Assembly: GCA_050575255.1 (NCBI GenBank)
Contig: JBNZDD010013721.1
Span: forward strand, 6,144,548 to 6,208,547
Length of the DNA stretch: 64,000 bases
Reading direction: 5' to 3'
From: Harriotta raleighana
Taxonomy: Eukaryota
Numbering within the stretch: the stretch's first letter is position 1; the number at the start of each line of letters is the position of its first letter. The notes under the pieces were generated by a model. The model was not told the DNA's origin, searched no databases, and saw only the letters and a program-made list of their open reading frames with translations. The translations under genes were made by a program, and so were the position numbers. This document shows positions 17,059 to 43,469 of the stretch, in pieces.

Positions 17059-17086
17059 TTTGTTTGCTTCATGATTTTTCTTTCAG

Positions 17087-17540: not shown

Positions 17541-17734
17541 TAGTTATTAAGCACAGAGACGGACAACCAAGGCCTTTAATGCTTTGATCTATGCTTTTTA
17601 ATTCAGAGGTTTTCAAATGTGTTATAAAGGCGCTATATGAATAATTTTGATTGATTGATAATATCAGGCATGAGAAAGCTTTCTTTCACTCACCTTGTAC
17701 GGGATACAAGTGTGGGTTGTTTTCCTCATGACAT

Positions 17735-18129
17735 TAACCACCTATCTCTCTGACCTGCTGTCTCCCTATCAGCCTGCCCACACCCTCCGTTCAGCAGATT
17801 CAGGCCTGCTCCGCGTCCACCGCCCTGACCGCCCAATCATCGGTGGCCGGGCTTTTAGCCTCTCTTCCCCCACACTATGGAACTCCATTCCGCAGTCCCT
17901 CTGCCTTGCTTCCTCCCTTTCCTCCTTCAAGGCCAGTCTCAAGACCTTCCTCTTCGACCGCGCCTTTGGCTCCCCTCCGACTCTTTCCCCTCTCCCACTT
18001 TCCATCCCCCTCCCCCTGCCCCTGACCCTCCTCCTCTGATCGGGTCCCGACCTGACTGTTCAGCGCTTTGGGACGACTTCCCGACGTGAAAGGCGCTAAA
18101 CAAGTGTAATTTTGTTGTTGTTGTTGTTG
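17735..18129 (+). mobile_element. L2 LINE 3' end (ORF2 C-terminus, 3' UTR and (TTG)n tail)
   Basis: ORF 17695-18039 YLSDLLSPYQPAHTLRSADSGLL..GGRAFS..PTLWNSIP..SFKASLKTFLF, typical of the L2 ORF2 C-terminus; tail AGCGCTTTGGGACG..GTGAAAGGCGCTA..(TTG)n. Confidence 0.88.
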
Positions 18130-19443
18130 ACAATGGATTTGTTAGTATTCCATTCCTGTTCTGCATTCATTTTTTAATACACAATGGACCCCATTTTGGA
18201 CAAAGTAGCAAAGTACCACTCTATCTCAGCTTACCTCCCAGTTTTTCCCAATAGGGGCATTGATGAGCCATATAATGCAACGTGGGTATTTCCTAACAGA
18301 AATAGAACCATCCTTTTGAGATATTTACATCACTTGATATTGTAGCTCATTCCAGGAAGAATCAAACATAGAATCCATCAGACCAAATAAAGCACTGTTT
18401 AACTATAGGTAAAAATCACCCAATGCATCGCACAGTGAGTGGCTTAGAAATCTCGTACAATATATCTTTAGAATTAGAAATATAAAGACTTAATATAAAT
18501 AAATATGAAGACTTGACCTCTCATAGCATTTGTATTCTCACCCAGTTACAATATTCGTTTCTTCCAAGAGCAATCCAACAGACAAACAGTGGAGAGAACA
18601 AATTGCAGCATTACAAAGTCCAGGCTGATCTTTATGAGCTTAATGTTTTTCAACAATAAATGGGGAAAGGGATAGTACCATAGTGACATTGTTAATGGAT
18701 TTCCATGGGAGATTGTGTCCATAATTTACCCACACAGTTGTGCTATTAATGGAGGAACGGAGGGCAGGATGTCCCTGGTGTGGGAGAGGGAGGAAACCTT
18801 ACCTTGGAGTGTTCTCGTGCGCCTACATTTGGAAAGAGCCATCATCAAGGAACAGGTTAGGCTCCGGTCTCTCACTCAGAATCCTGTGAGGGGAAATCAG
18901 GAGATAATTTACAGCATGGGAAGTCATGTGAATGAGTGCTATCAAAAGAAGATAGACACCATAATGTAGCCTGCTACAAAATCCTGCACCAAAGCGATGG
19001 AACTGCAGGGTAGCCAACAAGGCAGAAGCCCTGCTCTGCACACCAATCATTAATAAACATCAACTAATGGTTGAGCCAAGCTCCAGTGCCAGCGTAGTGG
19101 ATGATTCACAGACTGTCAGTGAAGCTTGTCATGGTCTATGAGAAACAAGGAATCACCCAAATAATGTGTTTTTTTTGGCTTTGCACCAAAATTAACAGAA
19201 GTGCTGTGAATGAGAAACTGCTCAACAATAATTTGCGTTTACATAGTGCCCTTCACATGGAATAGTAGCTGCGACAAGGGCAAACATACCGAATTGTAGA
19301 ATTTGCAAGGAGCCGGTGGTTTTATGGTCAGGAATTATTTTCTTCCTAAGGAACCCATCATTTGACCATTTGTTCACCAGAGTTATGATGTTCATACACA
19401 ATCCGGATATCAAGCCTTATTTATCCTTAACGGCCCATCTCAG

Positions 19444-19501
19444 ATGTGTCCACCATCATTCTCTTTGGGGCATGCATTGAAGGGGTGGTGCTTCGAGACA
19501 A
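19444..19501 (+). CDS. SLC12A5: KCC2 exon 11 (58 bp): YVSTIILFGACIEGVVLRDK
   Basis: U12 acceptor, gtaagt donor; phases match exons 10 and 12. Not in the ORF track. Confidence 0.95.
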
Positions 19502-21042
19502 GTAAGTTCATTCCATTCAACTGCTGATAAAAATGAATGGTAATGGTGTGTGGTGCAGGAAGAGGTGGATATATAAAGCTGTCAGCTCTTTTTTGTGTTG
19601 CACATCACGATCTTGGAACAGAGTCGATTACAGAGTGAAACAAAAAATATTCACTGAGTTCAGCACAGCAATCAATCGCTCCTAATGGCTTGGCGGGCAC
19701 GTCCTCAGGGCTCCATGCTTGGTCCTCTCCTCTTTCGACCCAGTTTTAACCCCTGGTCTGCACTGAATTAGTTGATCTTAGCTGTAGCAGTGATCAAGAT
19801 GCTTCACAATTGTTTTCTTTGTGCATCAATCAGTGCAAGGCAAGGTAAAGCAGATATAGATATTCTATTCTTCCCCAAGAGCCTGCTTCAACCCTAGAAG
19901 ATCCATCCTTCCCATTTTATTTCTCTACACCAGTCATACCTCCACAGTCTCTTTGATTGAGATTGCCAATTGTCCAACTCACTGAACCATCAATTCCCGA
20001 GGAAAGCACATTTAAAAGCCACTCAAATTGCAGTCTGGAGGATAAATTGAGAAAAAGTGCTTTGAGTGACAAAATAACCAAACAAAATTGAATGCATTTA
20101 AGGATATATTCGAGAGAGAGAGAGACCAAGTGAAACAAATATTTTGTAGAAGCCACACACTGCATTGTTTTCTACATCTCTCCGGACTGAAATTGTAACA
20201 GTCATAAGGTTAGATATTCCCACTGCTCGTGGCCTGTATAGCCATTTTATCTCGAATGTATAAGATGGTGTAGACTCAGGGAATATTCAGAAGCCGGTTT
20301 GTGATAAGGAACAACTTCCAAATTCAGGTTCACCAAAAACTTTCGACACTTAAATTTTAAAATAGAATGGATACCTGGGCTGAGGCTATATGGAGTTTTA
20401 GGCTTCTGATTGGTAAATTTTTTATTTAATCACCAATGTTTCCATTATTATGTTAAATGCATCTCGATTCACAATTGTTCAGGAGAGCATAAATTGCCCA
20501 TGAAATACACAGCCAATCCACTTTACAGCATATCCCCTGAAGCACTTTGAAATGTCTCAACAATGTGATAAGGTGCTACAATCAAGTGCAGGAATTACAG
20601 AAGTAGTGGAAGCATCTATGGCACAAGCAAAAGTGTCTGGAACGTCCATCTGTTGTATGAATGGGATAGATCATGCCTTCAGCTCGTGACAGAATTAGAA
20701 TGTCTATAAGAGGGTCAAAAAGCACAAGAGATACAAATTAAATTTGCATTGTTCTAAATCCCCTTGCTTGTGCATCCAATTATATCATTCAGCACCTGTA
20801 AACTCCCCTGGTGCCAGTATAATTGTAATAGTCCCGCTGTTGTTGAGCATGTTTTGAATAAACATCTGGTTTGCTGTGAATTTGAGATGTTTATCAAGTC
20901 TGAAGGGTTACTTCTGTACATCATCACTTCCACTTTGATTTGTATAAATTTTGGCATTCATACTTTTTCCAGTAATGAATAAATTAACTGCACCTTCACA
21001 GTACTGTATATATTCATATGAGTTTTATGAACAAAAATATGT

Positions 21043-21245
21043 AGTTTCACCCACAAAATATAGTCAATTCACATTACATTATATTCTGTGACGTTTCAAA
21101 GACGTTTCAAAGATGTGTTAAGACATTATATCAAATCAAAGATTAATAATAGTAATAATGATATTCCTTGCATTTGATATAGCGCTATTCACGTCTTCTA
21201 GATGTCTCAAAGCACTTCACAGAATATACTTTTGTGGGTGAAACT
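21043..21245. repeat. Tail-to-tail inverted pair of family A SINE 3' ends (~200-bp hairpin)
   Basis: AGTTTCACCCACAAAA (21043-21058) is the exact reverse complement of TTTTGTGGGTGAAACT (21230-21245); the arms meet at a TAA-rich junction near 21150. Confidence 0.8.
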
Positions 21246-23044
21246 CATTATTATTATTATTTTAATACTATTAATAAAAGCAAAACATTCTTGCAGAGGA
21301 ACAAGAGTAAACTTCTAGCACCAGCTGACAACCAAAACACAACAACAAAATTACATTGGTACAGTACCTTTCACTTGTCCCTCACACAGAGTAACCCTGA
21401 CCCTCCTGGTGAGCTCAAATCTAAAACCTCAGATATGTTGTCTCACTTTTGGACACAAATATTGAAGGTTGTTTAAATAAGCCTGTAGATAGAGCATAAA
21501 TCCATGGACTACAAGCAATTGATGAAGAATTATTTAGATCAGAATTTTATTGTTGGGTCCAACTACCATCACTGTACTTAAGAATAAATAATACAGTAAA
21601 AATTATTCACAGACAGGCAAACAAAGTTGATTGAGATTGTACATCATTGAGCCAGACCAAGGAACTGAAACTGTAAGTGTGATACAGGTGGTAAAAAAAA
21701 ACAATATATTCTAAGATCAATTTTCAGTACCTATTTCTAGAAAATGGTTTGCTCGTCAATGGAGAGGGATGTTAATACTATGAAATAGCACAACTCTTAA
21801 TGCAGAGTGTGAATATTGACCACTCCCTAGATTAGGTGCAACGTAGTTGGGTACAAAGTAAGGCTATCTCTGCACCCAAAGCACGTCTTTGCCCCAGCCT
21901 CAGAAAGACAGCCTTAACTGCATCAAAAAGATGTCAAGCCCTTTTGATACCAATCATCTAGATGCCACTGTGAATTAGATTGACAGTTGAAATAGAATTC
22001 GGAGCAGTTTTGTATATGAAGCACATACGTATATATAATTCAAGGAACAGGGCTGAGGCTGCCTAAAACCAAACCTATTTCGCAACCCCCTACATTTCAC
22101 AGAGAAGGAGAGAAATCTTCATGTCCTCTGTCTATACTGAACTGCATTCTAACTCACAGAGGTGAAAAGGGAAAATTCTAACCCACTCAATCAACCATTC
22201 AGTTTCCCAACCAATCTCTTTTTTTTTTAGAAAGCAGCAATCTATGTCAATTATATTTCTAAATAGAAAACCAATTCCTGTGAATGTGAATCACTAACTA
22301 AAATGAGGAAATAACAGAGTTCCATCAAATTGCTTTTTTTTTGGTCAACTGGGTGCTGAGACATAGATACCCATCACTGTACCTGAACTAAACTACTGAG
22401 AGTTCCACAAATGTATGAAAATATCCCATTACTCCTAATATATATGAGCGTTTGCACGTATATCTGGAATTTGCTTTATGAGGTTAGAAACAAAAATTAC
22501 TAACAGCTAAATGACTTCAGGTAAATAGGTTCTGAACTGCTCCATATGTTTGCAGCCCAAATCTGACACCTTGTGGCCTCACAGCAATTTTCTCTACCCT
22601 TGATTAAGCCAGCATCGCATTTGACATAGAAATATTATGAACTAAGCGTATTAAGATTTATCACAGGCTCATGACCTGAAACACCAGAGCAGCAAGTCTG
22701 CACTGAAATCATAGCACTGTTTCTGAGACTAATCTCTAGTGTTACAGGGACATGCTATGAATAACAAGTAGATAATCAAGGATCATTAGCCTTGAATAAA
22801 GACAATCTAGAGAGTCATGTAACTGTATAAATTCCACTTAGTCCCATCTTGGATTATTCGAGTCTTGAAATTCATGATGCCTAGAATTGTGAAAAATTCT
22901 TAAATCCAGTCTTGGTTTGGAAGCCCTATTTCCACGTCTTAAAAAAAATGTTAAGACAAAGTGGTCTTATAGTATTAGGTAGAATGTCATAGGGGTAGCA
23001 TTTCATAAATTTCAACTAAACTTTGATTTACTCAATATTCCATG

Positions 23045-23451
23045 TCAGCCTGGATCAGTGGTAGCACTCTCAGCTCTGAGTCAGAAAAGGTTGTGGGTTG
23101 AAGCCCTATGTTGGCACTTGGAATCACATTGTCTAAGCAGACACTCCCAATGCAGCGCTGCAGGTGAGGGGTTGCATTGTCGGAGCTACCGTCCATCAGA
23201 TGAGATGTTAAACCAAATCGGTGGATTTTCTAGATCCCATTGGCACTATTCGAAAACTGAAGGGTGCCTGAGTCCTGGCCAACAACACCACCCCCAAAAA
23301 CAAAATTGGTCACTCATGCCACATTTCAGTGTACAAACTGGCTGCCACATTTCACTGAAAAAGAAACTTTACAGGATATCCTGGGAAATGCTTTGAAGCA
23401 TCTTGACAACATGATAGAGCACTATATTGAACACAGTCATTATTATTATTA
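23045..23451 (+). mobile_element. Family B (SacSINE1-like) SINE, best-preserved copy
   Basis: GTCAGCCTGGATCAGTGGTAGCACTCTC..CTCTGAGTCAGAAAAGGTTGTGGGTTGAAGCCC..TGCATTGTCGGAG..CAGATGAGATGTTAAACC..AGATCCCATTGGCACTATTCGAA..GTCCTGGCCAAC; explains ORF 23058-23396. Confidence 0.75.
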
Positions 23452-23683
23452 GCATTTCTGAATTTGCCATTTTTAAAATAGTCTAAATTTTGAAGCCAGT
23501 TTTCAGTATGTACCTTAAGAACTGCAGAAAACTGCAGAGTTCGGAGATAAGACTAAATTTATTCATTTAGCTAAATTGTGGATGCTCTGAAATGAGTAAC
23601 TCGGGACCCAGATGGAATTTGTCCCCCTTAGCTTGTCATAAAATATTGATGCCAGTCAGAATAATGTTAGATGAACTGTATAC

Positions 23684-24010
23684 TGAACTCCTGTAGCTCA
23701 GTGGTTAGAGCACTCACCTTACAAGCACGAAACCTGTGTTTGAATCCAGGCAGATCAGGGCGAAACCTTGGGCAAGTTTCCTTACTCCACACGCTTAATA
23801 ATAATCCGTCCAAAAAAAACACAATAATAAAAATTTAGTCCTTTTCAATCCACGACTATTTGTGGGACACTGCTGTGCGCAATTGGCTGCCGCATTTCAC
23901 CCACAAATATACAGTCACTCTACCATATATTCTGTGAAGCGCTTTGAGATGTTGATAAGATGTGAAAAGTGCTGTATCCAAATGCAAGAATTATTCTTAT
24001 TATTATTATA
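23684..24010 (+). mobile_element. Family A SINE, full length, tail ~16 nt upstream of the exon 12 acceptor
   Basis: A box TAGCTCAGTGG, B-box-like GTTTGAATCC, core and (TAT)n tail. Confidence 0.9.
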
Positions 24011-24027
24011 CCAATTTTTATTTTCAG

Positions 24028-24202
24028 GTTTGGAGAAGCAGTGAATGGGAATCTTGTGATCGGTACCCTATCCTGGCCATCTCCGTGGGTTATTGTCTTT
24101 GGCTCTTTGTTCTCTACATGTGGTGCTGGTCTACAGAGCCTTACCGGTGCACCTCGCCTGCTGCAGGCTATCGCTCGAGATGGGATTGTACCGTTCCTAC
24201 GG
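24028..24202 (+). CDS. SLC12A5: KCC2 exon 12 (175 bp): [58 protein letters not shown]
   Basis: ttttcag acceptor, gtgggt donor; ORF 23969-24385. Confidence 0.96.
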
Positions 24203-27200
24203 GTGGGTGTTGGTTGTCCTTTCTGTTGGAGGGTGGGTAGTGTTGGGAAAACGGAAAACAACGGATTTGATCTGCATGTGAAAGAGTTATTTAAATCCCC
24301 TCCCTCCCCATGTAAAAGGAGCTATATCAATGTGCACAATCGGTTGCCGCGTTTCACCCACAGAATATTTTGTGAAGCACTTTGAGGTGTCTTAATGATG
24401 TGATATGGCGCTACAACAAATGCAAGGATTATTATTATTATCATTAATATTGTGCAAATCCACGTTATGCCAATTTATGTGCTGTAGATACTTCCAATTT
24501 ACCACCCAGCTGGGATGCAATGGAATTATAATTAAAATTCGCAATTGCAATTGTGGTATTTCTGAAAAATGAATCTACGGTCGTCTTTGTAAAACCTAAA
24601 AAATATCATTAGTGACCACAAGTCAAGGCATTACTGCCGAACAGCAATTGGATGTGACAGGGCAACTTGCTGCAAGCTTTGTGGCATCCCTTCTTACAGT
24701 GACATGGTACTGAAATACTATTGTGGATCTCCTTAATATCTTAGTCTCTTGTTGGCTACACTTCATCAACTGCTCATTCATAACTCTGAATTGAAGAGAC
24801 GGGCTGTCATGACCTGTTGCTAATCTTATACTCCTCCAGCCTTGCATTTTCGATGTCATGTTCTTACAATTATAGGATCCTGTGATGAAATCTGATATTT
24901 CTCCTCCATAGAGCCACCTGTTTTGAGGTAGATTGTTTATATTTCAAAGAGATAAATTACAAACATATTCATTTGGATTGTTGACTCTTACTTTAACATA
25001 CCTCTCCCACCTCTCGCAGACACCAATCACCCTGATTAGCTCGAGCTTCCATGTGAAAACAAATGTTCCAAACAAAAAACATAATGTAGAGGTATTTCAT
25101 CTTGTTACTTTTTATACTGCATCCTAGGTTCTATTCTAACTGTTCAGTGCTATCATTTCCCCAGTCTAACTCAACCTCTGCCATTATAGAGCACATATAT
25201 CAAATATCCCATGAAATCTAATGTTTAAATAAAACGTTGGCGGGGAAAGGCAAGTGAAACGGCTTGAAAGTGAGTGTCAACAATCCAAATTGTAATTACT
25301 GTTTGTAATATAACTCTTTGAAATAAAAGGAATCTACCTCAGAACAGATGGATCTGTGTCTGGAGAGAAAAATGTTTTAAAAGGCTGTTTAAAATATTAA
25401 TCATGTATTTAGAAATTCTGTACTGTGTCTCTACAATTTACTGCCATAGGCAAATGCTGTACATCAGGAAATGGCATCGTAAAAAGTTGTTATTATTGAC
25501 TATTATTGACTATTCTTATGTATGAATTGCTTCGGATTGTTAAAGGAACATGAAAGCACTTACTGGTGTCTGTTTCCCAATTGACCTTGGTTAGAATATC
25601 AACTTCCATTTATACAGTACCCTTCAAATGGAGTAACATTCAGGAGCACTTTGCTTTCCTTTGTTCTTTTTCAAAGCCAATGTTTGGTGGCTTGTGTGTG
25701 ACATTCTGACGTTCTATTCTAATGGTTTGAGAATAAAATGATGGATTGTACGGAGGCATGCCTCATTTATTATGTCTCTGGAGGGAAACCTACATTGGGA
25801 CAGGCATGAGGAATGTACACTGTGCTCCCGAAGATCTCTGACCAGCGATTCTATAGCAGGACACTCAAGACTGACTGAGAGACAGATGGCAGTAAATTAT
25901 AGAGCCACAGTATTTCTCTTTTCTAATGTACAACATTAAATGACTGTTCGACTTCCCCTTTAATTTTCGTTTCACACATAAAAATAGTGATTTGGTTTTA
26001 ATTACAAAATGGATAATTCATACTTAACAACAACTTTGATTTATATAGTGCCCTTTACACAGAGTAGCGTCCCAGAGCGCTTGACAGTGGCAGAGCATAC
26101 TGCAGAGAAGGGGGGAGGGAGATGGTGACTGTAGACATGATCGGAGAATGTTGGCACATGCTTAAGAGTCTGTTGCTTATTTTTTGTAACTAAAACTTTT
26201 GGTTTTACCTTAGTGTTTCCAGCAATTATTTTTAAATCCTTCAAATCTAACTATTTCTGGCCCACTTTCTCCACCACAGGAATTATAGAAGACCTAATAG
26301 GAAATCTGTTGCACATTTGATATTAACATTCATTGTCAAGAAAACAGGAGCTAAGAATGCATAGCGACAGTAAGCTTATTTCCGATCGCCTCTCAAGGCA
26401 GATCCAAGGCGACACGGAGGCACATAGTGCTGCTTTCCACTACTTAGAGGAAATACATGCATATAACAGAAGGAACCGAGTGGAGTTGCAGATCTGGAAA
26501 CTGGCAGACCCCAAAATGTTGATCAGACTTTCACTTTCAGATGTTAGATTGATCAGATTGGTAGTTCAGGCTGTTATTTCTCCAACAAGGGATTTTTTCA
26601 TGCTGAGCATTGGCATATTTGGTACCAGACTTCCTTAATAAGACAAGCAAGCGGATTCTCTTTCTACTAACTGTATACGTGTCACATTCCGAGTTGAGAG
26701 ACCCTTCAAGTGAACATGTCTTCCCTGGGTTTCTTTCTGATCCCATTATCAATAGTGTACAACAAGAAGACAGAGGTTTAGAGTTGTAAAGGGCAATTTC
26801 AAGACAGACACCAAAAGAAAGTTTTCTTTACTCAAGAGGGTACTCAACAAATACAAAAAAATAGCATTCACAAAGTGTCTTTCATGTCAGGGGAATGACC
26901 TGGACAGTCCAGGTTTGCTGGAAAGGGCTTTCGACAACAAAGTAATCTTCTGACCTTGTGAATATAATAGGTGAACCTCACAGTCAATTTACACTCGACC
27001 AATGAGTGTCAGGCTGGTGATGGTGGAGGGTGGAGGGTGGAGGGGGGTCCTTGATCCTATAACCTTTTGACTCAGAGGACAGAGTGCTGTAAATTGAGCC
27101 AGGCTGACAGCTCCTCCTATAGAGAGAATATCAGACCACAATTGTACGTAGTTTGAGCATTGTGCCATTTTCAATCGCAGTTTCCAATCATGTTACTTAG

Positions 27201-27467
<267 letters not shown>

Positions 27468-28055
27468 TAATTGTGCATGTATCTTGCTTCATAAAAGGTG
27501 ATACATACACATTTATTGGTGTCTCTCAGCCATCCTTGATTACCTTCATGTACTCCACAGCAGATGCTCACAGGTTGAGCTGCTTCTCAATTAACATTCT
27601 GAGGCTCTGTTGCAAAGATACATGAATTTAATGAACAAATTATGTCCCTGATTGTGGACCCCCCCATGTTGTTACAGGAGTAAAGATTTTACGCAAAACC
27701 AGTTGAAGGATCAAGGCTCAGAAATTGCCTTGTTGTTTGTCTTTTTGGTTCTTGCCAACTAAACAAAAACGGCAGCTAAACTAATTTAATAGTAGACAGC
27801 TTCTTTTGTTAAACATGTGTCTGACATATCCAAACAGAGCACCACATATGAATGCCATCTGCACAAGGAAATTTACCTGTGGCGGGAATCAAATGTACCC
27901 TCCAGGCTTACTTAATTTCAGAGAATATTCGGTGTAGGTTGGCGAGAGCCAAAGTTTGGGGACTCCAAAGCATGCATTGGGAGACTGCTGATGTTTAGCT
28001 AATTAAAACAACATGGTTTCTTTTGTGTGTAATTATATCAGATGCAATTCCATGA

Positions 28056-28178
<123 letters not shown>

Positions 28179-28520
28179 TAAGAAGTACATTTCACATTAT
28201 CACAAAATGTGGAGCACCACAGAACTGAGCCAGGTCATTTCTGTATTTCAGCTTGACATTAGAAATACACACCAACATGAAGTGGTTACTACTCATAGCA
28301 TTCCAAACACAATAACTGATACTGAGTAGTGTGTTCCAAGTTACAAATTGGTACCTGAGTTTCATGTTATACTGAGTGTGTTAACTATGTTATAAACGTA
28401 AAGTATGTTACCTGGAGGATAATGGGACCCTATGGAGGATATTGGCTAAATCCTGGAATATTAGTGTTTGTGTCTGTGACATTAGATTTAATTTGGTGAC
28501 AAATGTTTTGCTTTGCACAG

Positions 28521-28640
28521 GACCATGTCATTTCTTGGAATGAGCCTGTGCTTGTCCCTGATGTTTATTTGTTCCTGGTATTATGCAATCGTGGCCATGG
28601 TAATCGCTGGACTTATCTACAAATACATTGAATTCAATGG
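28521..28640 (+). CDS. SLC12A5: KCC2 exon 15 (120 bp): [40 protein letters not shown]
   Basis: ttgcacag acceptor, gtaagt donor; TM11-12. Confidence 0.96.
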
Positions 28641-29719
28641 GTAAGTGCCCGTTTGTTGCAGTGAAACAATTCACTGAGCTTTGTAATATTTTCTCACATC
28701 CCAAGTGGCATCAATCGCATGTCTGTAACCTGACTAACCCAAAGTAAGCTGTTTGTTTTAGATGGTATGGAGGATGGAGGATTTCACACTTAGATGGAGG
28801 ATTTCAAACTTTTCATTCATTAACATTTTCAAAAGAGATGAATAGTTTTTTTTGTGAGATCAGGGTATCAAGGAATATGAGGCAAAGGCAAGTATTTAGA
28901 GTTGAGCTACAATCTAAGAGAATGGGAGAACAGGTACATGGGACTGAATGGCCTACTCCTGTTCCTTAGATCTTATTACTGAAATGGCACCTTGATATGA
29001 AATGTTGTATCCCACCTTACTATCTCTGGCTAGCAGCTTTGAAGTAGAAAATGGAGTAATGAAGAGACAATTGGAAAACACCAATAATGGGACGACATTG
29101 TGCAGAAATCTTGCTGTTTAACACTGTTTAACACAAAATGTAATCTTCCCATCCTACCTGTGCTATGCAGCTCCCCACCGGCACCATCCATTCTTTTCCC
29201 ATTTCAGGAACAGGTTTGTTTCTTTTTACCTTGGTATCTATTCCCTGTGTTTGATACTTTCCGAAGTCTGTCTGAGCAGAAAAGGCCAGGACCATGTCAA
29301 CAAAATCATTCAATTCAAGGAAATCACGGCACAAACGGAGTGCCACAAATCTGCTACAAATTGGCAACAGCAACGTGGCCGCAAGTCCTCCAAAGCCTGA
29401 GATTGTTCAGCGGCAATAATCGTCGAAGGACAGTGTGAAGCAAAAAATTTGTGAAATAAAATTGCCTGCAGGAGTCTGCAGGAACTATTACAATTTAATA
29501 AATATGATTTGAAGAGCGTTGTTAAAATAGAATAAAATGCCCTGCTCTATTGGCAGTATCACGAAACCTAACAATATTAAAGAAAGAATGTCATCCATTC
29601 AAAGGACACCTCAACTAGAGGAGAATAATGGGCACATGACAAGTCCCTGGAGTGCAATGGCTTTCTTGTGTAGTGGATTGTACAGTGGTTAATGGATGAT
29701 TATATCTGTGTTTCACTGA

Positions 29720-29875
<156 letters not shown>

Positions 29876-29884
29876 TGAGTCCCT

Positions 29885-30215
29885 TTGTAGCCTGGCTTGG
29901 TGGGTAGTGCCTTTGCCTGTTATGGGTTCAAGCCTCATTGCTGGACTTTGGACTCTCTGTATAGGCTGACACTCCAATACATACATAGCTGTCTTTTAGA
30001 AGAGACGTTAAACTGAACTCTTGTCTGCCTGTTGAGGTGGATATTAAAGATCCCACATCACTATTCAAAAAAAGAAGGGAGTTTTTCCTGGTGAACTGGC
30101 CAACAATCGACCTTAATCAGTCATTCACTTCCCAGCTATTTGGGAGACACTGGTCCTTTGGAGATATCTTGACCACATGATACAATTGTGTATCAAAAGC
30201 AAGGATTGTTACTAT
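29885..30215 (+). mobile_element. Family B SINE
   Basis: GTAGCCTGGCTTGGTGGGTAGTG..GGGTTCAAGCC..GAGACGTTAAAC..AGGTGGATATTAAAGATCCCAC..CACTATTC. Confidence 0.6.
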
Positions 30216-30229
30216 GCTATTAATTGTCC

Positions 30230-30530
30230 ACTTGTTGGTGGGTCCAAAACTAGAGGGCATGAATATCAGGGAGCTAAGAGAAGATTTTGTAGGAAGTTTG
30301 CGAGGAACTTCTTCACATAGAGGATAGGAAGAATGTGGAACTCACTCCTGGAAGCTGTTATTGAAGCACAAAGCATCAATATGCAGTAATTAAGAGAAAA
30401 CCTGAGGCATACCTGAGGGAAGAGGAAATAGAAGAGAATAGGAGGCTCATATGTAGCATGAACACTGACATGTTGAACTAGTTGAACCAAATAGCCTCTT
30501 TCCATACCACATGGTTCTATGAAATTATGA
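30230..30530 (+). mobile_element. CR1 LINE 3' fragment
   Basis: AAACTAGAGGGCAT (TRGH)..GGAACTTCTTCACA..AGG..ATGTGGAACTCACT (FF..R...WNSL), matching the CR1 ORF2 C-terminus. Confidence 0.7.
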
Positions 30531-30609
30531 ATAGTTTCTGCTTTTTATTTTTTATTTCCATTCTGTTTGTCATGTTAAGTTGACCGTAAGTTTTGTCTAT
30601 GTTCACCAG

Positions 30610-30778
30610 ACCTCAGCTCCTGGTGCTTGTGAAGGTCGACCAGGACCAAAATGTCAAACACCCCCAGCTACTGACGTTCACCTGTCAGCTGAAGGCCGGC
30701 AAAGGGCTCACCATCGTGGGGTCCGTACTGGAAGGAACCTTTCTGGAGAATAACACTGAGGCTCAGCGGGCCGAAGAG
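30610..30778 (+). CDS. SLC12A5: KCC2 exon 17 (169 bp): [56 protein letters not shown]
   Basis: ttcaccag acceptor, gtatta donor; ORF 30593-30787. Confidence 0.96.
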
Positions 30779-31454
30779 GTATTATAGTAATATTAATCCT
30801 TGAATTGTACTGTACACACCAGCCTTGTCTAATCCCTTTACGTTTGTCCTCTAAACATCTCACCTCTGTTTATCTAGCATTAAGGAGGAACTCAGTTGTT
30901 GGATAATTGGTGGATCGCATTTCAAGGGTAGTAATCCCTCACCACTCCTAAAAGAAAAAAGTTTGGGGTCACTCAATCCAGAGCTATTTGTGATTTATTG
31001 CCATCTTTCGCTCACATAGTCTTTTGGATCATATTACCAATTTTTCAATAGTGTTCAGAAACTGATGCCTGATATACACTGGATGCATTTTTTTTTGCAG
31101 CCAAATTCAAAATGATCTAACAGAATAAATCTGTCTTCCCATTTACATCAAGGGATGCTAGTGACTGGTGAGCAACAACAGCACCAAACATTCCGTGCTG
31201 TACAGATGTGGTTGTGAAACTAAAAAGCCTATGATCTCTGGCTCATACAGAACCCTCATCATTTATTCCATTATCTGGCATTAGTTTTCAATCATAAAGC
31301 AGTCCAGATCTCATTCATGTACCTTATACAGATTTTTCATCTATCATTCCTTCCAGTCACTCTTTCCATTCCAACTCTGCTTAATCTGGTAAATGCCCTC
31401 AAACAGCCAGTGCTGCTCTTTCCTGATAATAAAAGGCCTGTTCTTATACTGTTA

Positions 31455-31650
31455 ATATGAATTATCCTAGCATTTGATGTCCACGTCATTGAGATGCCTC
31501 AAGGTGCTTCACAAGAATATACTCTAAAGTGAATTGACAGTATATTTGGTGGGAGAAACATGGCAGCTAATTGTGCACAGTAGTGTCCCACAAACAGTCT
31601 TGGATTGAGTTATCAAATTATAACTATTTTTTTAAACAGATTATTATCCC
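31455..31650 (-). mobile_element. Family A SINE 3' half
   Basis: ATTATCCTAGCATTTGAT..TCAAGGTGCTTCACAAGAATATAC..TTGTGCACAGTAGTGTCCCACAAACAG. Confidence 0.7.
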
Positions 31651-33904
31651 AAGAAAGAGGATTATATTGGAGGTTGAGGACACAGATACGAGGTCTGGCA
31701 CTGCCTTCACTTTCTATCCCAAATTAGAACAGAGCTGCTAATGCTGTCTTTAACTTAGTGCACCCACTGATGACAAGACATGGAAAATTACCCACCAGGT
31801 CTGTCATTTGGCATATTTGCAACTCATAATTGTTCATAAATCCATTAACACTCTCCCAAACGTCAACCGAGATGAAAGTTTTAATGTCAAACAAGTCACA
31901 AAATGTATAAAATAGAATGAACGTCCATTATGTGGGAAACACTGCACGACTGTCAAAACACATTAGTCACACGTTAAAGCACAATTGTTATCTTCACCTT
32001 GTAGATTTTCAGCAGTACAGCAATTGCACGATAAGTGTAGTTAATAAGCAACAGTGTGGAATACCATGGTCCCTCTGTAAATTATCATGCAAATAACCCT
32101 GTATAGTACTTTGCATACTTCAGTGTTACAACCTTGTGTGTTCTGAGAGGACTCCCTCCAAGTATCACAAACCTTTCCAAAATTAGCCGCTGAGCCACAA
32201 TGATGGTTTTAATTGTCCACAAGGAGAAATCACAACAGTTTGCAATCTGCACACAGGTTAACGTTTTGAAATGATTAGGCAGTGAAGAATAGGTCTGCCC
32301 TCTCCTTCTGAAGCGCTCTGAGACGCCATCCGGCGTGGAGGGCACTATATAAATTGAAGTTGTTATTGTTGTTGTTGACTTGTGTCCAAGACGATTTTGA
32401 TATTGAGGTGTGCTGAGTGGGGACGTTTGGAAATTGATATGTCCCCAATATATTTTACCATTTTGTCTTATCATCCATTCATTTCATAGAAATGGGCAGC
32501 AGTTACACAGTTGTGAATGGGGAGTTAAGTGACAGCATGTTAGTTAATCATAAAATACAGCAGTCAAATATTTTGTACTGAAAGGTTGAATTTCGCTGGC
32601 AGTTCAACTTGGAATGCCCAGAGACTTCGGACATCCTCCCAACGTGAAAGATGCTATACAAATGTAATTTTGTTGCTGGAATGAAGAGTGTAACAATTGT
32701 AGATGACCAATGCTTAATTAACATGACAAACTATTCGTTGAGCATTATCGCAGCTTGATTTGTGACTGAATGGAAGGGGAAGGATTATCGTGAGACACAA
32801 AGGAGCAAGAGGGGGTTTCAGATTGCTCGCATTGTGTCGTGGCGATATTAGTATTGATTATTCTGAAACAGTTTTATCTGCATTGTAATACACTATTTTC
32901 TTATACTTTTTGAACCTTTGGTGTAGGGCAGGTTGTAGGTAAATCACTTTTTTCTGAAAAATGTTTTCAGATGAACTAAGTCAGCAGAACAAAGCATCAC
33001 AGTTTCAGAGATGTGACAAGTAATTTTAGAATGGGCACCTGGAAATATATCTTTACGCATTGGGTAATTAACAGCTAGAACGGCTTACTTGGTGAGTTAT
33101 GTAAAGAGCACTGGATTTAATGAAGAAATGGCTTGATGCTCTAATGGGAAGGGTGGGTATTCTGGGAGGATCAAGTGACTGAAGGGCATACTCTTCATCC
33201 AAATCAAAAAATGGACATTGTGCAAGGACATTTTGCTTGTCAAATTGCTTGCTTTCCAATTTTACCATCCTTCTTGGCATTGGGTAGAATTGTGTTAAAT
33301 CAACCATGCACATTGCTCTGCATGAAGGGCACTGTTTAAATACAAGTTGTTGTTGTTGCATATGGGTTGTACTTGTTGGTTCATGTGAAAAGAGGTATAG
33401 GTTGGATCATATGCCTTTGCTACATTATAAATGCTCTTGGTTTTCAACAATCAGTAGGTGATGAGTAGCCCTTCGTTTTCATAAAGCTTTGTCAAGAATG
33501 TGCAGTGAAAAGTGTGATACATTAAGAAAGCCCTGAGGAAAAATCCTCTTATTTTACAAGCTTCGGTAGTTAAGCTTCCAAATGTTATATTATCTTTGTA
33601 CAAATTCACCAGGCTTTGGAGTTCATAAGATATTATCTTTCATATCAGATATTGGATCCACAGTTCAAATTCAGCCCAGGGGAAGGGTATTATGATTACC
33701 TCTCACCCAGAGCTATTCAGAGCTAGAAATAGCAGATTTAGACCAACCTTTGCATGAAACATCTCCAAGTTTGGCAGTTACCATTCCAATGGCATAACCC
33801 ACTGCATCACACGGTCCCGCAAACAAGCACCTGGCTCCCTGACAGCCTGTCTGTTTGTTGTTCTGTTTTCAGTTTTTGTCTTGTCTCTCTGTTTCTCTGA
33901 ACAG

Positions 33905-34100
33905 TCCATTCGACGTCTTATGGAAGTGGAGAAGGTAAAAGGGTTCTGCCAAGTTGTCATCTCCTCCAACCTGCGTGACGGCATGTCTCACCTCATCCAG
34001 TCGTGCGGACTGGGAGGAATGCAGCCCAACACTGTGCTGATGGGCTGGCCACGTGCCTGGAGGCAGTCAGAGGACCCCAAAACCTGGAAAAATCTAATCG
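33905..34100 (+). CDS. SLC12A5: KCC2 exon 18 (196 bp): [54 protein letters not shown]
   Basis: Long polypyrimidine tract plus cag acceptor, gtaatt donor. Confidence 0.96.
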
Positions 34101-35013
34101 GTAATTTCAGGGATCAATTTCAGGGATCACGTCGCTCTTCAATGATTTTTCATGCGCTGGAATTTACATAAAATACATCAAACTTAAAAGAATAGGAAAA
34201 CACAAATTCTATGCACTTGTTTCTGATTCAAGGTGTATGACCTTACACTGATCTCCATTAGAACCAATCTATCCATCCATTTATCTTGACATATAAATGG
34301 GGCTTAATACATGGAGATTTCTAATGGAATTCCTTAATAATTCATGGCTGTTTGTGGGACATTGCTGTACGTAATTTTTTTTCGCCTGGAAAATACATGT
34401 TTTAATAAAATACACATGGCAGGTAAAACCCTGTGAGGAACTATCCACTGAGAAATTTCAATTTGATAAACTGCTTTATCAAATCCAGGAATTATTATTA
34501 TAATCAATACATTTAAAGAGAAATTGTCTCACTGCTTGAAGGCATTATAAAATCATAAATTTGACAGTTCAAATTTTAACACACTTATTTAGTAAATGAG
34601 GCGTTTTGAGAAGTTCTACTTGTGTACAAATGCAAATTCTGACAGATGGTTAATTGAATATAATGGTATTACTGAATCACTGACTCTTCACAGAATATAT
34701 TGTAAAGCGAATTGACTGTATATTTTATGGGCAAAAAATAGGAACGCATGACAGCCAATTTGCATCAACAGCAAAGAGTGCCTTATCAAAGTGAATGGAG
34801 GTAGGGAGAGGAATTTATGACAGGATATAAATTTCACTCACAAAGCTCTTGGGTTAAAAGGAACCAGTTGAGTGAAGTGAAGCCAATGCTTATGGAACAT
34901 AATCAGAGCGCAGCCCAGCTCTGTTGGGAGAGGACGGGAGAACATTGAAAAGGGAAACTGCCCCCTCTCCAAAAGGAAATGACCCAATAACTGTATAACC
35001 TCTGCTTTTGTAG

Positions 35014-35183
35014 AAGTGGTTCGGGAAACAACTGCCGGTCATCTGGCCCTGCTGGTAGCTAAGAACATCGCTCCGTTTCCATCTAATCAGGAGAGATTTG
35101 CTGAAGGCAACATTGATGTCTGGTGGATAGTACATGATGGAGGAATGCTGATGTTGCTGCCATTTCTCCTCAGGCAGCACAAG
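35014..35183 (+). CDS. SLC12A5: KCC2 exon 19 (170 bp): [43 protein letters not shown]
   Basis: ttttgtag acceptor, gtagcc donor. Confidence 0.96.
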
Positions 35184-36545
35184 GTAGCCTCATTTTAAGA
35201 ACAGCTGTTTCCCACACATGACATTGCCCTGTGTCCCAGCCCAGGTAACAGTAGCTTAATCTGAGCTAAGATCCACTGGATGGTCTCCTCCTATAAATTC
35301 CTCTATATCTCACTTGAAACTGTGCAGCTCATTTAATCATTTAGAATCTTCATGTATATTAATGTATATTAATGATGAGTAAGAACCGTACAACCATAGA
35401 GACACTTTATCCAGGATTCCGCTGATCTCAGTGTAAAAACGCATGCTTTCCTTGTCCCTTATTCAAGTTAAGTGACAAATGGTCTGGAAAGTATAAAAGC
35501 CACCACTCCCCTCCACCTCCCCATCTATCTGTACATCCCTACTCCATATTCCTATCACATGCTTTGTCCAGTCTCCTCTCTGGAGTCGACCATGCTGATG
35601 CCTATTTGTGAAGTGTCCTGAATATTTTCTGTACTTGTCCCTCATTGCCCCTGCTCTCAATAACAACAACAACAAAATTACATTTATAGAGTGCTTTTCA
35701 CGTCGGGAGGACGTCCCAAGGTATCCCAAGGCTCTCATCTTCCCCTGGTTTGTTCCACTCTGCTTACCCTCAGTTTTACGACAACCCAAGCAAACCACAA
35801 TTTAATCACAATCTTACTTCCTGTACCAGTGACAAAACACCAGCAAATGCACTCTGCTGGAGGAATTTATTTCTCAAGATCATGTGTACCAAATGTGACA
35901 ACTACTAATGAAGACTATTCGCTTGTCACACTGGGCAACATAAATACAGATTGCAAACTGGAATCAAATGTCATTTCAGGAATACTCTCACTCAAAAACA
36001 AACTCCCTCGAGATCTTTTGTATCTTACACTGAATGGGCTATTGTGGCTGTTGATTAAAGTACTAATTGGTAAGTCAAGACACTCCATCTAACTATTGTT
36101 GCAACAGATCAATGGACACAACTGATGCAAGACGTTTCTTCAAATCAGAAGTAATTTCAATCTGCAGGGTCTCACTGCACAGAAGTGCAAACATGGTTGG
36201 AGGGAGAGGAGTGTTTCAGATTCCATCTAACGTCCTTGAGGGGAGGAAGTAATGGGGGTCTCCTTAGAGCTGAGCTGTCTCCAAGGTGACATGCTTGGCA
36301 ACAGAATATCATATTCAAGCCAGCTCTCAATAGGCCAGTTCCTGAGCCAGACAGGTCTACAATACTCTCAGGGTTGGGCATTACTAATGACAAACTTCCC
36401 TGCCTCCCTCTCTGCCACCATCCCCAGCTTGGTTTCTCAATCAAGTCTGTCAAATGCTTTGCGACATGTTCCCGATGTGAAAGTCGCTAAATGACTGTAA
36501 ACTGTTGTTACGTATGCAGAGATATAACTGGCAATCTCTGTTTGA

Positions 36546-36683
<138 letters not shown>

Positions 36684-37207
36684 TGAGGATAACAGTGCTT
36701 TAAGTATTGAGACCTCTACATTTCTATGAGGCATTGCCACAGTCTAGATGTATTATAGGCACGTTTGCTCTTAGTTAGCCTTTGGTGTCGTTCGAGGGGC
36801 TGAAAGTTAATTTTTGTTAGGGTGATCGGACCATCTACTGTATTAAGATTTCTAAATGTTTACTGCAGACTTCAGTCCAGTGAAGGACCTGAAATTTCCC
36901 TTTGTGACTAAATCTAGGGCATCTTCTTCTACTGTCTTGTTACATCCTAATGTATTGATCAGGGTTTGCTTTATTCATCCTATTTAAAATGTTGTTCAAC
37001 TCCACAAGATCCTTTCTGAGTTGCCTTCTCTCAAGACGAAGCCCACAACATACACAGTCAGTTTACTTTACAACATATTCTGTCAAGCGCTTTGAGACGT
37101 CTCAACAATGTAATATGGTACTATATCAAATGCAAGGATTACTATTCATATTTTGTAACTGAAAAGTCATCTTCTCTCAACCAACCTGTACAATGGTTTC
37201 CATTGTA

Positions 37208-37597
37208 CAGTAAAACCTTGTTTATCCAGCACTCTTACACTGAATGGGCTATTGTGTTGACTAATAAACGAGGGAGAAGTCGCCGAAAACCCGACAGAAA
37301 AATGTAACTTATTTTAAAACATACCATGTTAATAATACACTATGTAGTAACAGAATATTGTATGGATACATATCAACAAAGCATTCTAGCAGACTCAGCG
37401 AAAAAATCTGTAACACAGGTTTTTTACCGATCGGTAAAAAATGCAAAGTGCGTAAGTTTACTAAGTGCGCACGCATTGCACACATGCGCAAAGTGAGCAA
37501 ACTCACGATTCTGGAATGGGGAATTGTCCCTGGAGGGGGGTCAAGCAATTGAATCGAGTCACGGTTCATCGGTTCACGGATAAACAAGGTTTTAATG
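37208..37597. mobile_element. Non-autonomous Tc1/mariner-pogo (Tigger-like) MITE, 390 bp
   Basis: 20-bp terminal inverted repeats CAGTAAAACCTTGTTTATCC and GGATAAACAAGGTTTTAATG (1 mismatch), flanked by TA at 37206-37207 and 37598-37599; no transposase ORF. Confidence 0.85.
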
Positions 37598-38502
37598 TAT
37601 TTATAAAATTGATACACTCGCTATCACATGCACAGACTATAGTGATACAGGGTCCCTTATCAAGAGAATACCAATAATGGTTCCCCTCTAAATTAATTAA
37701 AAAGCGATGCATATTTCAGAGTTGGAATTTTTATCACACTCAATTTTCCACAAGATTTACGATGTGTGGTTAACTGTAACTCAATGTCAAACCTGTAATT
37801 ACTGGTTTAATCAAAACTGAAATTAGTTACATATAAGATGATTTTTTAAAAAATGTTCCTGCATATCAGAACGGGTGAAGTTGATCCAAAATTGAGACCA
37901 AATTAAATATATAAGGGATTTAGGATTACCTGGAAAATCATTACTTCTGCGTCATTGCTGGAGTTGGAAAGGGTTGGGATGATGAATTTAAATGTTTTAA
38001 TGTCATATCTATTGAATGAAAGTATTGGAAAATGATCAATTTTGTGCGCTTATTTAACCTAGAAACGACATGGTAATCAAGAAGATGATATTGTACAAAT
38101 TGCTTGGAAATGATGTTACATAAGTGTATAAAGCATTGTTCTCATGATAAATAGCTCTGTAAAGCGACACAATGGGATCTACGTTACTCAGATCCTATTC
38201 TAAAGTCGGAAAACTATTGGCTATTACTGGAGATCTGGGTAAATCTGGCTCCAGTGTGTGAAGGACTGTCAGTAATATGCAATTTATATTGTGTACCTGA
38301 GGTTGAAGTTATGTTGGAATAATGGCTGTAAATCTGTTGAGGTGTTAGGGTTCAATGTTATTTATAGGGAGTGTTTGTTATAATGTAGGTGTTGATGTGA
38401 GAGAGTGGTTCTATGCATGTCAAGGTGTGTGTAGTTAGATATGTTTAACTTTGTGGCTGTTTGTATCTACAAGTGCCACTTCACCACTGCTTCTCTTTGC
38501 AG

Positions 38503-38610
38503 CACGACAGCGATATCTCGGCCTACACGTACGAGCGGACATTGATGATGGAGCAGCGATCACAGATCCTGAAAGATATGCACCTGACAAAGAACGAGAG
38601 GGAACGTGAG
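38503..38610 (+). CDS. SLC12A5: KCC2 exon 21 (108 bp): [36 protein letters not shown] (Y903/T906-equivalent sites)
   Basis: ctttgcag acceptor, gtagag donor; WNK-pathway phosphosite motif YxRTLxMEQR. Confidence 0.96.
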
Positions 38611-39741
38611 GTAGAGTATCATTCCTGTATTCATCGTGCTCCATGAGAAACTGCAGTATTGGTCCCACAAACCAGTTTGGTGGGAGGTCCTGTTTTTTGT
38701 TATTTCACAACAAAGGGGAATAAGGAATCTTGGATAAACCAGCGGGATCAATTTATATAACTTATTATTTCTCACTTCACGAACGTCCTTCATTAACATC
38801 CAAATCACTTCTTAAGGTATTTGTCTAGTTCCTCCTTGGAGGCGGATATGGATTCTTCCTCAAGCACTGCTCCCAGCAGGGCATTTCATAACTCAACTTC
38901 CCTGAGTGAACCAATGTCACATAAATTCCCCATTTGCTCATTCACTAACTATTTTAACCATCTTAAATTGTTGCTTCTTCATCCGGACAGAGCTTCCTAC
39001 ACTCTTAACCAACCTCTGCATGAAGTAATTCACTCCAAGCTGTTTATTTGCTCTCCTCTACCAAATTGAGACCATAAGCCAATGGTGTGGATCCACTGAT
39101 CATATGGAGTAAGGAATTTGGAGTCTAGTTTGCCCGCTTTCAATTTCGGATCAGTCTATTCATTATAAGAGCTTTACAGTCACATAATTCCCATGGGGAG
39201 TATAGAAAAACCAGAGGTTGCTTCTCCTACATTGCTCTTGCGCACCATCTTGTGGCCAGATATAGGACAAACAGTTTCAATATCAATGGAAATACAAAGC
39301 GCTTTGAGTCAACAGATATCCTATATCACTGCATCTGGACCTTGAATACTTGTGAAATTCCCATGCATTATTAGCATAAGAATATGAGGATAAACCAACA
39401 AAAGACCATTCAGCTTTTTCAAGTCCGTTATTATGTTAAGCTTTGAAATGTGAGGAACTCTTATCAAATGAAAGGATCATTTATTACTAAATCATGGCAG
39501 ATTGTGTGATTCCCTCAACCTGTCCTTTTTCTCCTTCCATATTCTTTAATACTCTTACTTCCCAAGTGTTTTTTTATCTCGCTTTTAAACTTTGATTCAA
39601 TTTCTGCTACGTTCCAGGCAGCTTCAAGTGAGGCCAGTCCTGCCTTGTAAAACAAAAACAAAACCTGAACGTGTGTGTGTGTGTATGAGTGTGTCTGTGA
39701 CTTCTTTCTCTCTTCCCCCACCCACTCCATCTCCTGTGCAG

Positions 39742-39864
39742 ATTCAAAGCATCACTGATGAGTCGAGGGGCTCCATTCGCCGTAAATATCCAGCAAATGC
39801 CAAGCTTCACTTGAGCGTCCAGGATGAGCAGGAAGGAAGCTCTGAGGAGAAGCCAGAGGAGGAG
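39742..39864 (+). CDS. SLC12A5: KCC2-specific exon 22 (123 bp): [41 protein letters not shown]
   Basis: cctgtgcag acceptor, gtactc donor; S932/T934/S937/S940-equivalent residues intact. Confidence 0.96.
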
Positions 39865-40039
39865 GTACTCCCACCTCAGTGTCATAGCTTTCTGCCTTTT
39901 ACCCCTTGTAGTTGAGTCATGCACCAACGATCCACAGATGTAGCACATACAGTGATATTTTCATTAAGTTCCTGGGGGGGTGACTCCCTGGGTCTTACAA
40001 ATAGCTGGAGAAGAAGATTGCGCGAGACAAGAAGAAAAC

Positions 40040-40665
40040 CAGGGAGGAGAGGAGACAAAGAGAATTTCTTGTACCCAGAGAGTTGTTACAATGTGGAATG
40101 CACTGCCTGAAAGTGGGGCTGGAAGCAGATTCAATAGCAGCTTTCAAAAAGGCGATTGGCTATGTACTTCAAAAGAAAAAATAAATTGCAGGGCTGTGGA
40201 GTAAGAGCAGCAGAGTGGGATAAGTTGGATAATTCTGTCAAAGAGTTGGCACAGGCCCAGTGGGCCGAATGCCCTCCTTCTGTACTGTAAGATTTCTTGA
40301 ATCATGACCGAATGAATGTTCTCCAGATTCGATGATGGTCAACAAGGAGAAACTATTTCCACTGGCAGGTGGGTCGGTAACTCAAGGACACTGAGTTAAA
40401 ATAGTTGTTAAAAGAAACAGAGGGCAGGTGAGGGGAATTTTTTTTTGGCATCGCGAGTTGTTCGGATCTGAAATACACACCCTAAAAGGTAGCCATTTCG
40501 ATAACAACTTTTAAGAGAGAAGTAGATAATTATTTGGGGAGGACAAGTTTGCAGGGCTATGGGGAGAGAGCGGGAGATCGAGATTGATTTGGACAGTTCT
40601 TTTCAAAGAGCCGACACAGAGATAATGGGCCGAATAGCCTCCTTCTGTGATGTATAATACGATAT
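40040..40665 (+). mobile_element. Two tandem CR1 LINE 3' fragments (~40040-40300 and ~40325-40665)
   Basis: Each has ..CAGAGAGTTGTT..TGGAATGCACTGCCTGAAA (RVV..WNALPE) or a decayed equivalent, and the 3' end GGGCCGAAT.GCCTCCTTCTGT..TGTA. Confidence 0.75.
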
Positions 40666-40893
40666 GAATGTTAAGCAGAGGGTGTGATAGGAAGTCAGGC
40701 TTCCTAGTCTACAGTGTATTCATCTTCTGACTTCTGCCAACAGACTGCAAAGGTGGTCATTTTTCACTTGTCTAACGCATAGATACAAATTGCAATTCAA
40801 TGAAATTCTTTGCATGGGACTTTTGTTTAAAATTCAGTTTCTTATAAGTTACTTTTTTCTGTGTCTCTTTCTCTCATTCTTTCCTCTATTTAG

Positions 40894-41081
40894 GTTCAGC
40901 TGATTCATGACAAAAATGCCTCAACTCTTTCAATACCCTCCCAGTCCGCCACTGATGAGGCAGACACACCCTCAGAGAAGGTTCACATGACCTGGACTAA
41001 AGAAAAGTTTGCGGCTGATAAAAACAAGAATAGAGGGCCAATCACCCCAGAGGAAATCCGGAACCTCTTCAGTATGAAACC
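40894..41081 (+). CDS. SLC12A5: KCC2 exon 23 (188 bp): VQLIHDKNAS..EKVHMTWTKEKFAADKNKNRGPITPEEIRNLFSMKP (T1007-equivalent and ISO-domain region)
   Basis: Strong polypyrimidine tract plus tag acceptor, gtgagt donor. Not in the ORF track. Confidence 0.95.
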
Positions 41082-41454
41082 GTGAGTGAGCGACAACTAA
41101 GACAGGATTGGCACAAGAGGAAAGGGATTGAGGGATCAGCATAGAGCGGAAGGTTTAAGAAAAGCTTAAATCTCTTAGCAAACCAGAATATTTTGTGCAT
41201 ATTGCACTATAAATGAGGTCAGACTGGGTTGACAAATGACAGACAGACAGACATTAATGTGCATGGCTGTTAGATATTTAATAGAGGTTAGATAATGATC
41301 CTGTGATATGATCATATCTAACCTCTGTTAAATGATCTGGCTGACAAATTGCTGACAATTATATGATCTCGCTCACAAATGAAAATTCAAGCAAACATCG
41401 AACAGGAACTGTCAATATTATGAATCTCACTTACTGTCTCAGCAACTGATGTCA

Positions 41455-41815
41455 AGTGTAAGCTTGGCTCAGTTGCTAGTCTGCTTCCCCCTATATCAGA
41501 AGTTTATGGAATCAAGCCTTATTTTGAGTTTATTCTATGGGCTGTCCCCCAGTAATGTAATACTGCAGCCTGCTGCATTGTGGAAGGCACCTTCCTTCAG
41601 TAAAGATTTTAAGCCGAAGTCCCACTAACCCTTAAAGATCCTGTGATTGTAAAACAGAGTTTATTCTGTGCCCCTCGAGACAAATTGGTCTTCATTTCAG
41701 GACTGTCTGTAGGACTTGCTATGCGTAAATTATTTGCCTTGTTTTATACAGTGTCACAAATTCATGTAAAGTGACGTTGTTAGTGCAGTATCGAATGCAT
41801 CAATTATTATTATCT
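41455..41815 (+). mobile_element. Degenerate family B SINE just upstream of the microexon
   Basis: AGCTTGGCTCAGTTGCTAG..TCAGAAGTTTATGG..TGCATTGTGGAAGGCACC..AAAGATCC..CTTGCTATGCGTAAATT..AATTATTATTAT. Confidence 0.55.
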
Positions 41816-41858
41816 ATAACTGGCCTTTCTCTCATATTTATTCTCTCTATGCTTGCAG

Positions 41859-41873
41859 TGAATGGGAGAACCT
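41859..41873 (+). CDS. SLC12A5: KCC2 exon 24, 15-nt microexon (EWENL)
   Basis: gcttgcag|TGAATGGGAGAACCT|gtaagt; phase 2-2, joins FSMKP to NQSNV. Confidence 0.93.
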
Positions 41874-42397
41874 GTAAGTCAACCTTATTATGTATGTATT
41901 AAAAGATCAGGTTTACTTTGCTTAAAGACTGTATCTAAGTGACTCGCATACAGATGAGTAGGATAGTAATTGATTTGCTCTGTGGGTGAATGGCCTTTTC
42001 AGGAGGAACTTACAGGATTTACAGTACTTACTGACACTTTCATTTTATCCATCAATTATTTGCTGTAGACATAGAATATTTCTTAATACAGCACAGAAGT
42101 TTCATTATATCTCTAATGACTCTTTGAAAAAAACAGTTTTGTCCCATTTACTTGCCTCTCCCCATTTCCCCCATATCCCTACAAATTATCACTAAGTTTT
42201 TAAACCTAAATTGTTATCTCAAATGTCCAATGGCACAAGTTAAAGCTACTGATTTACCCTGAAATATATTGATCTGTTTGTTTCTTTCTGTGTTGCCTTG
42301 TTAGTGTGGATATCTGTGTGTGCCAGCATTTGCTTCTGTTATCTGCTCCTTCTGCAATTTACAAATGATAAAAACTGTAACTTCTCTTATCAATCAG

Positions 42398-42531
42398 AAA
42401 TCAGTCCAACGTCATGAGGATGCACACCGCAGTCAAGCTAAATGAAGTCATCGTGAAAAAGTCCCAAGACTCAAAGCTGGTGCTGATGAACATGCCTGGA
42501 CCTCCCAAAAACCGGAAGGGTGACGGAAACT
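42398..42531 (+). CDS. SLC12A5: KCC2 exon 25 (134 bp): [44 protein letters not shown]
   Basis: caatcag acceptor; followed by U12 donor GTATCCTTTC. Confidence 0.96.

Positions 42532-43469
<938 letters not shown>

Follow-up and report, generated by a model that had tools for sequence, protein, structure and literature searches.

Changes at residue 952 of KCC2 (SLC12A5) have been described in humans and in mole-rats. The first human family with the variant c.2855G>A (p.R952H in KCC2b) had febrile seizures, and in rodent cells the variant lowered surface expression to 61% of wild type and left Cl- extrusion partial; the case for it was based partly on the conservation of Arg in mammals and birds (PMC4197883). 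A second study also found surface depletion, Rhapsody scores the variant as benign (PMC12001125), and reviews state that S940 phosphorylation is lowered. Penetrance is incomplete, and the allele frequency is 0.21% in controls (5/2,428 alleles) against 0.66% in IGE (PMC4600830). Reviews and one preprint report wild-type His952 in the naked mole-rat and wild-type Cys952 in two Fukomys species (PMC10000161, PMC10770335, PMC9277573, bioRxiv 10.64898/2025.12.15.693140, after Zions et al. 2020). Human pathogenic alleles identical to ancestral residues form an established class, which was described for pathogenic mutations across the mammalian phylogeny (Soylemez and Kondrashov 2012, PMC3542581).

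The KCC2 of Harriotta raleighana resembles that of the mole-rats in being a wild-type protein with the human risk residue at 952. However, the mole-rat residues are derived reversions from Arg and have been read as CO2 adaptations, whereas the His of H. raleighana is likely an ancestral retention. R952H shares with the class of Soylemez and Kondrashov the identity of a disease-linked allele with an inferred ancestral residue, but it differs in being a susceptibility allele of low penetrance, with an ancestral state that predates the amniotes and no sign of a compensator. We hold with considerable confidence that H. raleighana has an ordinary chimaera-type KCC2 in which His952 is likely ancestral, and that human R952H is likely a CpG reversion whose effect is partial, and not a defect for which this fish had to compensate.

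The window, i.e. the whole 64-kb stretch of DNA that was analysed, was searched by tblastn and the KCC2 exons were found in order as far as the stop (Table 1); no 5′ exons were matched within it. The best protein match, among the matches listed (the best 120 of 228), was Callorhinchus milii SLC12A5 (UniRef A0A4W3ITS7, A0A4W3ITT6). It has the same residue at 40 of the 41 positions of exon 22, including His952, and differs in having H945 for the Y945 found here, with approximately 90% identity in the other exons, which likely reflects a holocephalan species other than C. milii. Moreover, the 41-residue exon contains T934, S937 and S940, which are a described feature of KCC2 (PMC4301019). Four matches to KCC exon 21 were found in the H. 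raleighana genome, one of the three paralogs being SLC12A7, and no similar exon was found downstream of exon 21 at the three other KCC loci. The 41-codon exon itself has a single match in the genome. KCC2 is distinct from its paralogs because this exon occurs only in this gene of the genome, and its orthology is secure. Two codons within the exon, R942 (CGC) and R943 (CGT), are CpG codons in H. raleighana.

Table 1. Positions of KCC2 features within the H. raleighana window (64,000 nucleotides; residue numbers follow human KCC2b).
Feature	Position	Strand	Basis or remark
SLC12A5/KCC2 coding exons, approximately human residue 158 to stop	5155..43469	+	tblastn, exon flanks; first and last bounds approximate
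Regulatory exon of KCC2/SLC12A5, 41 codons (exon 22 in PMC4301019; human 930-970)	39742..39864	+	alignment, flanks, single match in own genome
S940-I-R-R-K phospho-regulatory motif	39772..39786	+	S940, R942, R943 and K944 invariant in 81/81 rows
Tyr945, TAT	39787..39789	+	private to H. raleighana among the species compared; not a compensator
Ala949-Lys950	39799..39804	+	chondrichthyan states, common to Arg952 sharks and rays
His codon CAC at the position of human KCC2b R952	39808..39810	+	sequence, alignment, DNA contigs, reads
Met codon ATG at the position of human R1048	42414..42416	+	assembly letters

Two further details of the gene model were recorded. A 15-base micro-exon with AG/GT flanks (41859-41873) encodes the short segment known as exon 24, which is present in some ortholog isoform records and absent in others. 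Two copies of the last coding exon lie at a distance of 1,608 bases from each other, within a near-identical repeat of 1.6 kb (approximately 43051-44657 and 44659-46265) whose copies meet at the single N of the window (44658). This doubling is likely a scaffold-join artefact rather than a duplication.

The first-pass annotation had placed a His codon, CAC, at codon 23 of a 41-codon exon 22 and had aligned it, without gaps, to human residue 952. Both statements were borne out. The exon is in phase 0 with AG and GT flanks, it aligned ungapped to the KCC2 chains of human and mouse among the PDB sequences, and in human numbering it spans I930-E970, so that an exon starting at residue 930 has R952 as its codon 23, in agreement with p.R952H. 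Two sets of contigs from the same species contained no other letter over 39808-39810, and another set, covering 39809 onward, showed no difference to the H. raleighana sequence. Raw reads at the codon also agreed, with no CGC seen, at a depth of approximately 2-3 in two read sets plus one read from another, which is too low to exclude heterozygosity; the best read source over the codon may be the assembly's own sample. In two related organisms, at contig depths of 54 and 60, CAC is kept at 952. The probability that His952 is a sequencing error or a misalignment is therefore negligible: the raw-read depth is low and an assembly join artefact lies approximately 5 kb downstream of the codon, but the alignment is ungapped, several contigs and reads concur, C. 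milii has His and the two related organisms have CAC. His952 is confirmed as real in H. raleighana, yet it is not unusual, being found in 28 of 81 aligned orthologs.

These 81 KCC2 orthologs were chosen by hand to span taxa, from records that include the 120 listed of 228 matches. Alignment of exon 22 across chondrichthyans, teleosts and tetrapods, which had been proposed as a check, showed that His is widespread: besides the 28 rows with His, 43 have Arg and 10 have Gln. Among fish, His952 was found in C. milii, two bichirs, both paddlefish copies, two gars, the bowfin, the pike, the coelacanth and the lungfish, and among tetrapods in all 15 amphibian rows, Anolis and Liasis (olive python). 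Arg952 was found in sharks and rays (11/11), mammals (12/12), birds (5/5), three turtles, the gharial and 11 of 13 squamates, and Gln952 in three sturgeons and seven of eight teleosts. The cluster members listed, at most 15 per cluster, add Cys952 in both of two Thamnophis (garter snake) species and Tyr952 in Dendrobates. The squamate His states each rest on one reference genome and may be polymorphic. In a broader count, in which isoforms were counted separately, 269 of 336 collected proteins contained the KCC2 motif, with 119 R, 87 H, 60 Q, 2 C and 1 Y. All counts at 952 rest on the multiple alignment and on fixed-register counts only; the viper residue is Arg in the multiple alignment and was misread as His by pairwise alignment owing to a 2-residue deletion. 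At 950, too, squamates have replaced R with His or Cys, and the vipers lack two residues after 953.

The first-pass annotation had further suggested that His952 may be a compensated pathogenic deviation, harmful unless accompanied by N945Y, T949A or R950K. R952H does impair human and rat KCC2 in cells, the three candidate compensators all fall within 7 residues, and the human disease-linked residue is indeed the reference residue of an ortholog. However, the residue is widespread and more parsimoniously ancestral than derived in its carrier, and no accompanying compensating substitution was found. Tyr945 is private: every one of the 70 His and Arg rows tested has N or H at 945, and the two related organisms with CAC at 952 read C at 39787, giving a His codon at 945. 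The other two changes occur mostly with Arg, A949 being present in 2/28 His rows against 10/42 Arg rows and K950 in 2/28 against 11/42, with R950 in 24 of the 28 His rows. (The platypus, a long and odd row, was excluded from the rate and co-variation tests, leaving 42 Arg rows and not 43.) Moreover, the bichir is identical to human over 930-950, yet has His952, and the olive python (Liasis, His) and Burmese python (Python bivittatus, Arg) differ at 4 of 1,068 residues, 952 included, which is the sole difference between their exons. Across four such His/Arg contrasts, 952 alone differs in all four, and among 1,113 columns none co-varied between His and Arg rows beyond 952 itself and one N-terminal isoform column. 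We thus consider compensation by these three residues very improbable; diffuse or between-protein compensation for His952 is possible.

The direction of change was assessed on a tree built without the 41-codon exon, which recovered the expected vertebrate groups. The root was placed between cartilaginous and bony vertebrates, in line with established phylogeny. On this tree residue 952 needs at least seven changes, and hand parsimony gave exactly seven steps with His at the root and eight with Arg. The seven steps are gains of Arg in elasmobranchs and in amniotes, gains of Gln in sturgeons and in teleosts, and renewed gains of His in pike, Anolis and Liasis. His is found in the successive outgroups of the Arg clade, i.e. 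amphibians, lungfish, coelacanth, non-teleost ray-finned fish except sturgeons, and the holocephalan. Comparison of these sequences suggests that His952 is likely the ancestral residue of jawed vertebrates, with a margin at the root of one parsimony step in a sample without a cyclostome outgroup. The assignment of His below amniotes appears firmer than that at the gnathostome root because amphibians, lungfish, coelacanth and early-branching ray-finned fish agree, and the gain of Arg in sharks and rays was probably separate from that in amniotes. In shark KCC4 the position corresponding to 952 is Asp or Glu, so that a KCC4 outgroup cannot polarise His against Arg, and a search with the shark KCC4 exon returned five elasmobranch KCC4 records and none from a cyclostome.

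In the genetic code a single base change leads from a His codon to Arg, Gln or Tyr, and transitions at the CpG of a CGY codon yield either His or Cys. As c.2855G>A changes Arg to His, the human codon must be CGY. It is likely that human R952H is a CpG-driven reversion to the ancestral residue, the CpG being deduced from the amino acid changes. A single transition on the amniote stem would have replaced His with Arg and thereby produced a CpG codon, and the replacement probably took place again on the elasmobranch stem. That codon would then have decayed repeatedly, to His in the anole, the olive python, the naked mole-rat and the human allele, and to Cys in garter snakes and Fukomys.

Constraint differs between 952 and the motif upstream of it. 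Whereas R938, S940, R942, R943 and K944 are invariant in 81/81 rows, 950 and 952 vary, and the relative site rate is 0.91 at 952 compared to 0.05 at S940, with 16% of 1,113 sites as fast as 952 or faster. Twelve disease-linked KCC2 variants (listed in PMC12001125) were compared with the 81 rows, and R952H is the only one present in any ortholog. The alternative offered in the first-pass annotation, that R952H is mild, holds, and a mild susceptibility allele fits these data. The site may nonetheless be constrained in mammals, birds and elasmobranchs, given that Arg is found in all of their rows (12/12, 5/5 and 11/11). Most of the cytoplasmic loop is unresolved in the cryo-EM structure of mouse KCC2 (PMC7889885), and the sites that flank it would place 952 within this flexible segment. 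An AlphaFold2 model based on the 81-row alignment had a mean pLDDT of 34, and was discarded as uninformative. The best fit, as judged from the above, is that 952 acts as a quantitative tuning site. Lying 12 residues after S940 in a loop that is probably flexible, a basic residue at 952 would likely raise S940 phosphorylation and surface residence by degree; the core S940-x-R-R-K motif would be the part under strict constraint, and His952 would give a working but lower set point of KCC2.

The deficits of R952H could also arise if His was harmless in the ancestor and mammalian KCC2, or its partners, now depend on Arg, with reversion harmful only in mammals. We regard such entrenchment as possible though unlikely. 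Approximately 10% of substitutions are estimated to be irreversible (PMC3542581), the deficits of R952H were measured in mammalian cells (PMC4197883), and mole-rats with His or Cys are reported to be seizure-prone in normal air; however, no column within KCC2 co-varies with the state of 952, the squamate reversions occurred in near-identical backgrounds and R952H is carried by healthy controls (PMC4600830). Entrenchment is partly compatible with ancestral His and reversion by CpG mutation.

It is also conceivable, but doubtful, that His952 functions at a low body temperature or when CO2 makes the body acidic but not during fever or alkalosis, with Arg needed only in warm endotherms. All non-Arg952 records that we collected are from ectotherms, the published mammalian exceptions are mole-rats that need CO2, and the first human R952H family had febrile seizures (PMC4197883). 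However, the summed branch length is 0.107 for mammals and 0.069 for birds compared to 0.64 for squamates, leaving no statistical power. Since the sampled mammal and bird branches are short, conservation of Arg in endotherms is what slow evolution would lead one to expect. Ectothermic sharks, rays and turtles have Arg, and teleosts use the uncharged Gln. On this improbable reading, His at the tuning site 952, exchanged for Arg in amniotes and sharks, would be sensitive to temperature or pH. Were this true, one switch would link the febrile trigger of R952H to the dependence of mole-rats on CO2 and to the tolerance seen in ectotherms, and the pythons would be a nearly isogenic natural pair.

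Returning to ancestral His and CpG reversion, we found no statement, in the portions of the literature on KCC2 R952H/R952C, exon 22 and mole-rat seizures that were available, that His952 is ancestral or common outside mammals; His in non-mammals may already be visible in the alignments of Zions 2020 and Kahle 2014. Figure 2 of PMC4301019, by its legend, aligns the exon with Xenopus and zebrafish, and residue 952 of non-mammals is probably already in print without comment. In the wider sample 952 is labile and the human variant residue is itself the likely ancestral one, in favour of R952H being a mild modifier. The mole-rat account, too, calls for caution, in that the same His and Cys are found in anole, olive python and garter snake references. 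Recurrence alone is no proof of CO2 adaptation, because CpG decay is expected to yield just these two residues and they recur in these squamates. Frog, the python pair and garter snake would provide cheap natural controls for assays. The value of the locus lies in rereading R952H as a likely recurrent reversion, the residue being ordinary for the H. raleighana genome.

Other residues of this KCC2 are private to H. raleighana. Met is encoded at R1048, the site of the autism-reported R1048W, where all 272 collected KCC records with the motif have Arg-Arg. No second copy of this KCC2 exon was found in the genome, all other matches being to paralogs. Met1048 may be a base error; otherwise it is a private change at an invariant site and a greater surprise than His952. 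Pro replaces His768 at 34025 (His in 81/81 rows), and at near-invariant KCC2 columns Glu replaces Gln721 (30758), Ala replaces Pro989 (40948) and Asn replaces Asp1031 (41062). These may reflect relaxed constraint or assembly errors.

Lastly, the KCC4/SLC12A7 paralog of the H. raleighana genome has no counterpart of the 41-codon exon in its 620-base intron. The counterpart was found in 0/12 C. milii KCC4 records, and is present in many shark and ray KCC4 records. KCC4 is described as having lost this exon in placental mammals (PMC4301019), and its loss in holocephalans may have been independent.
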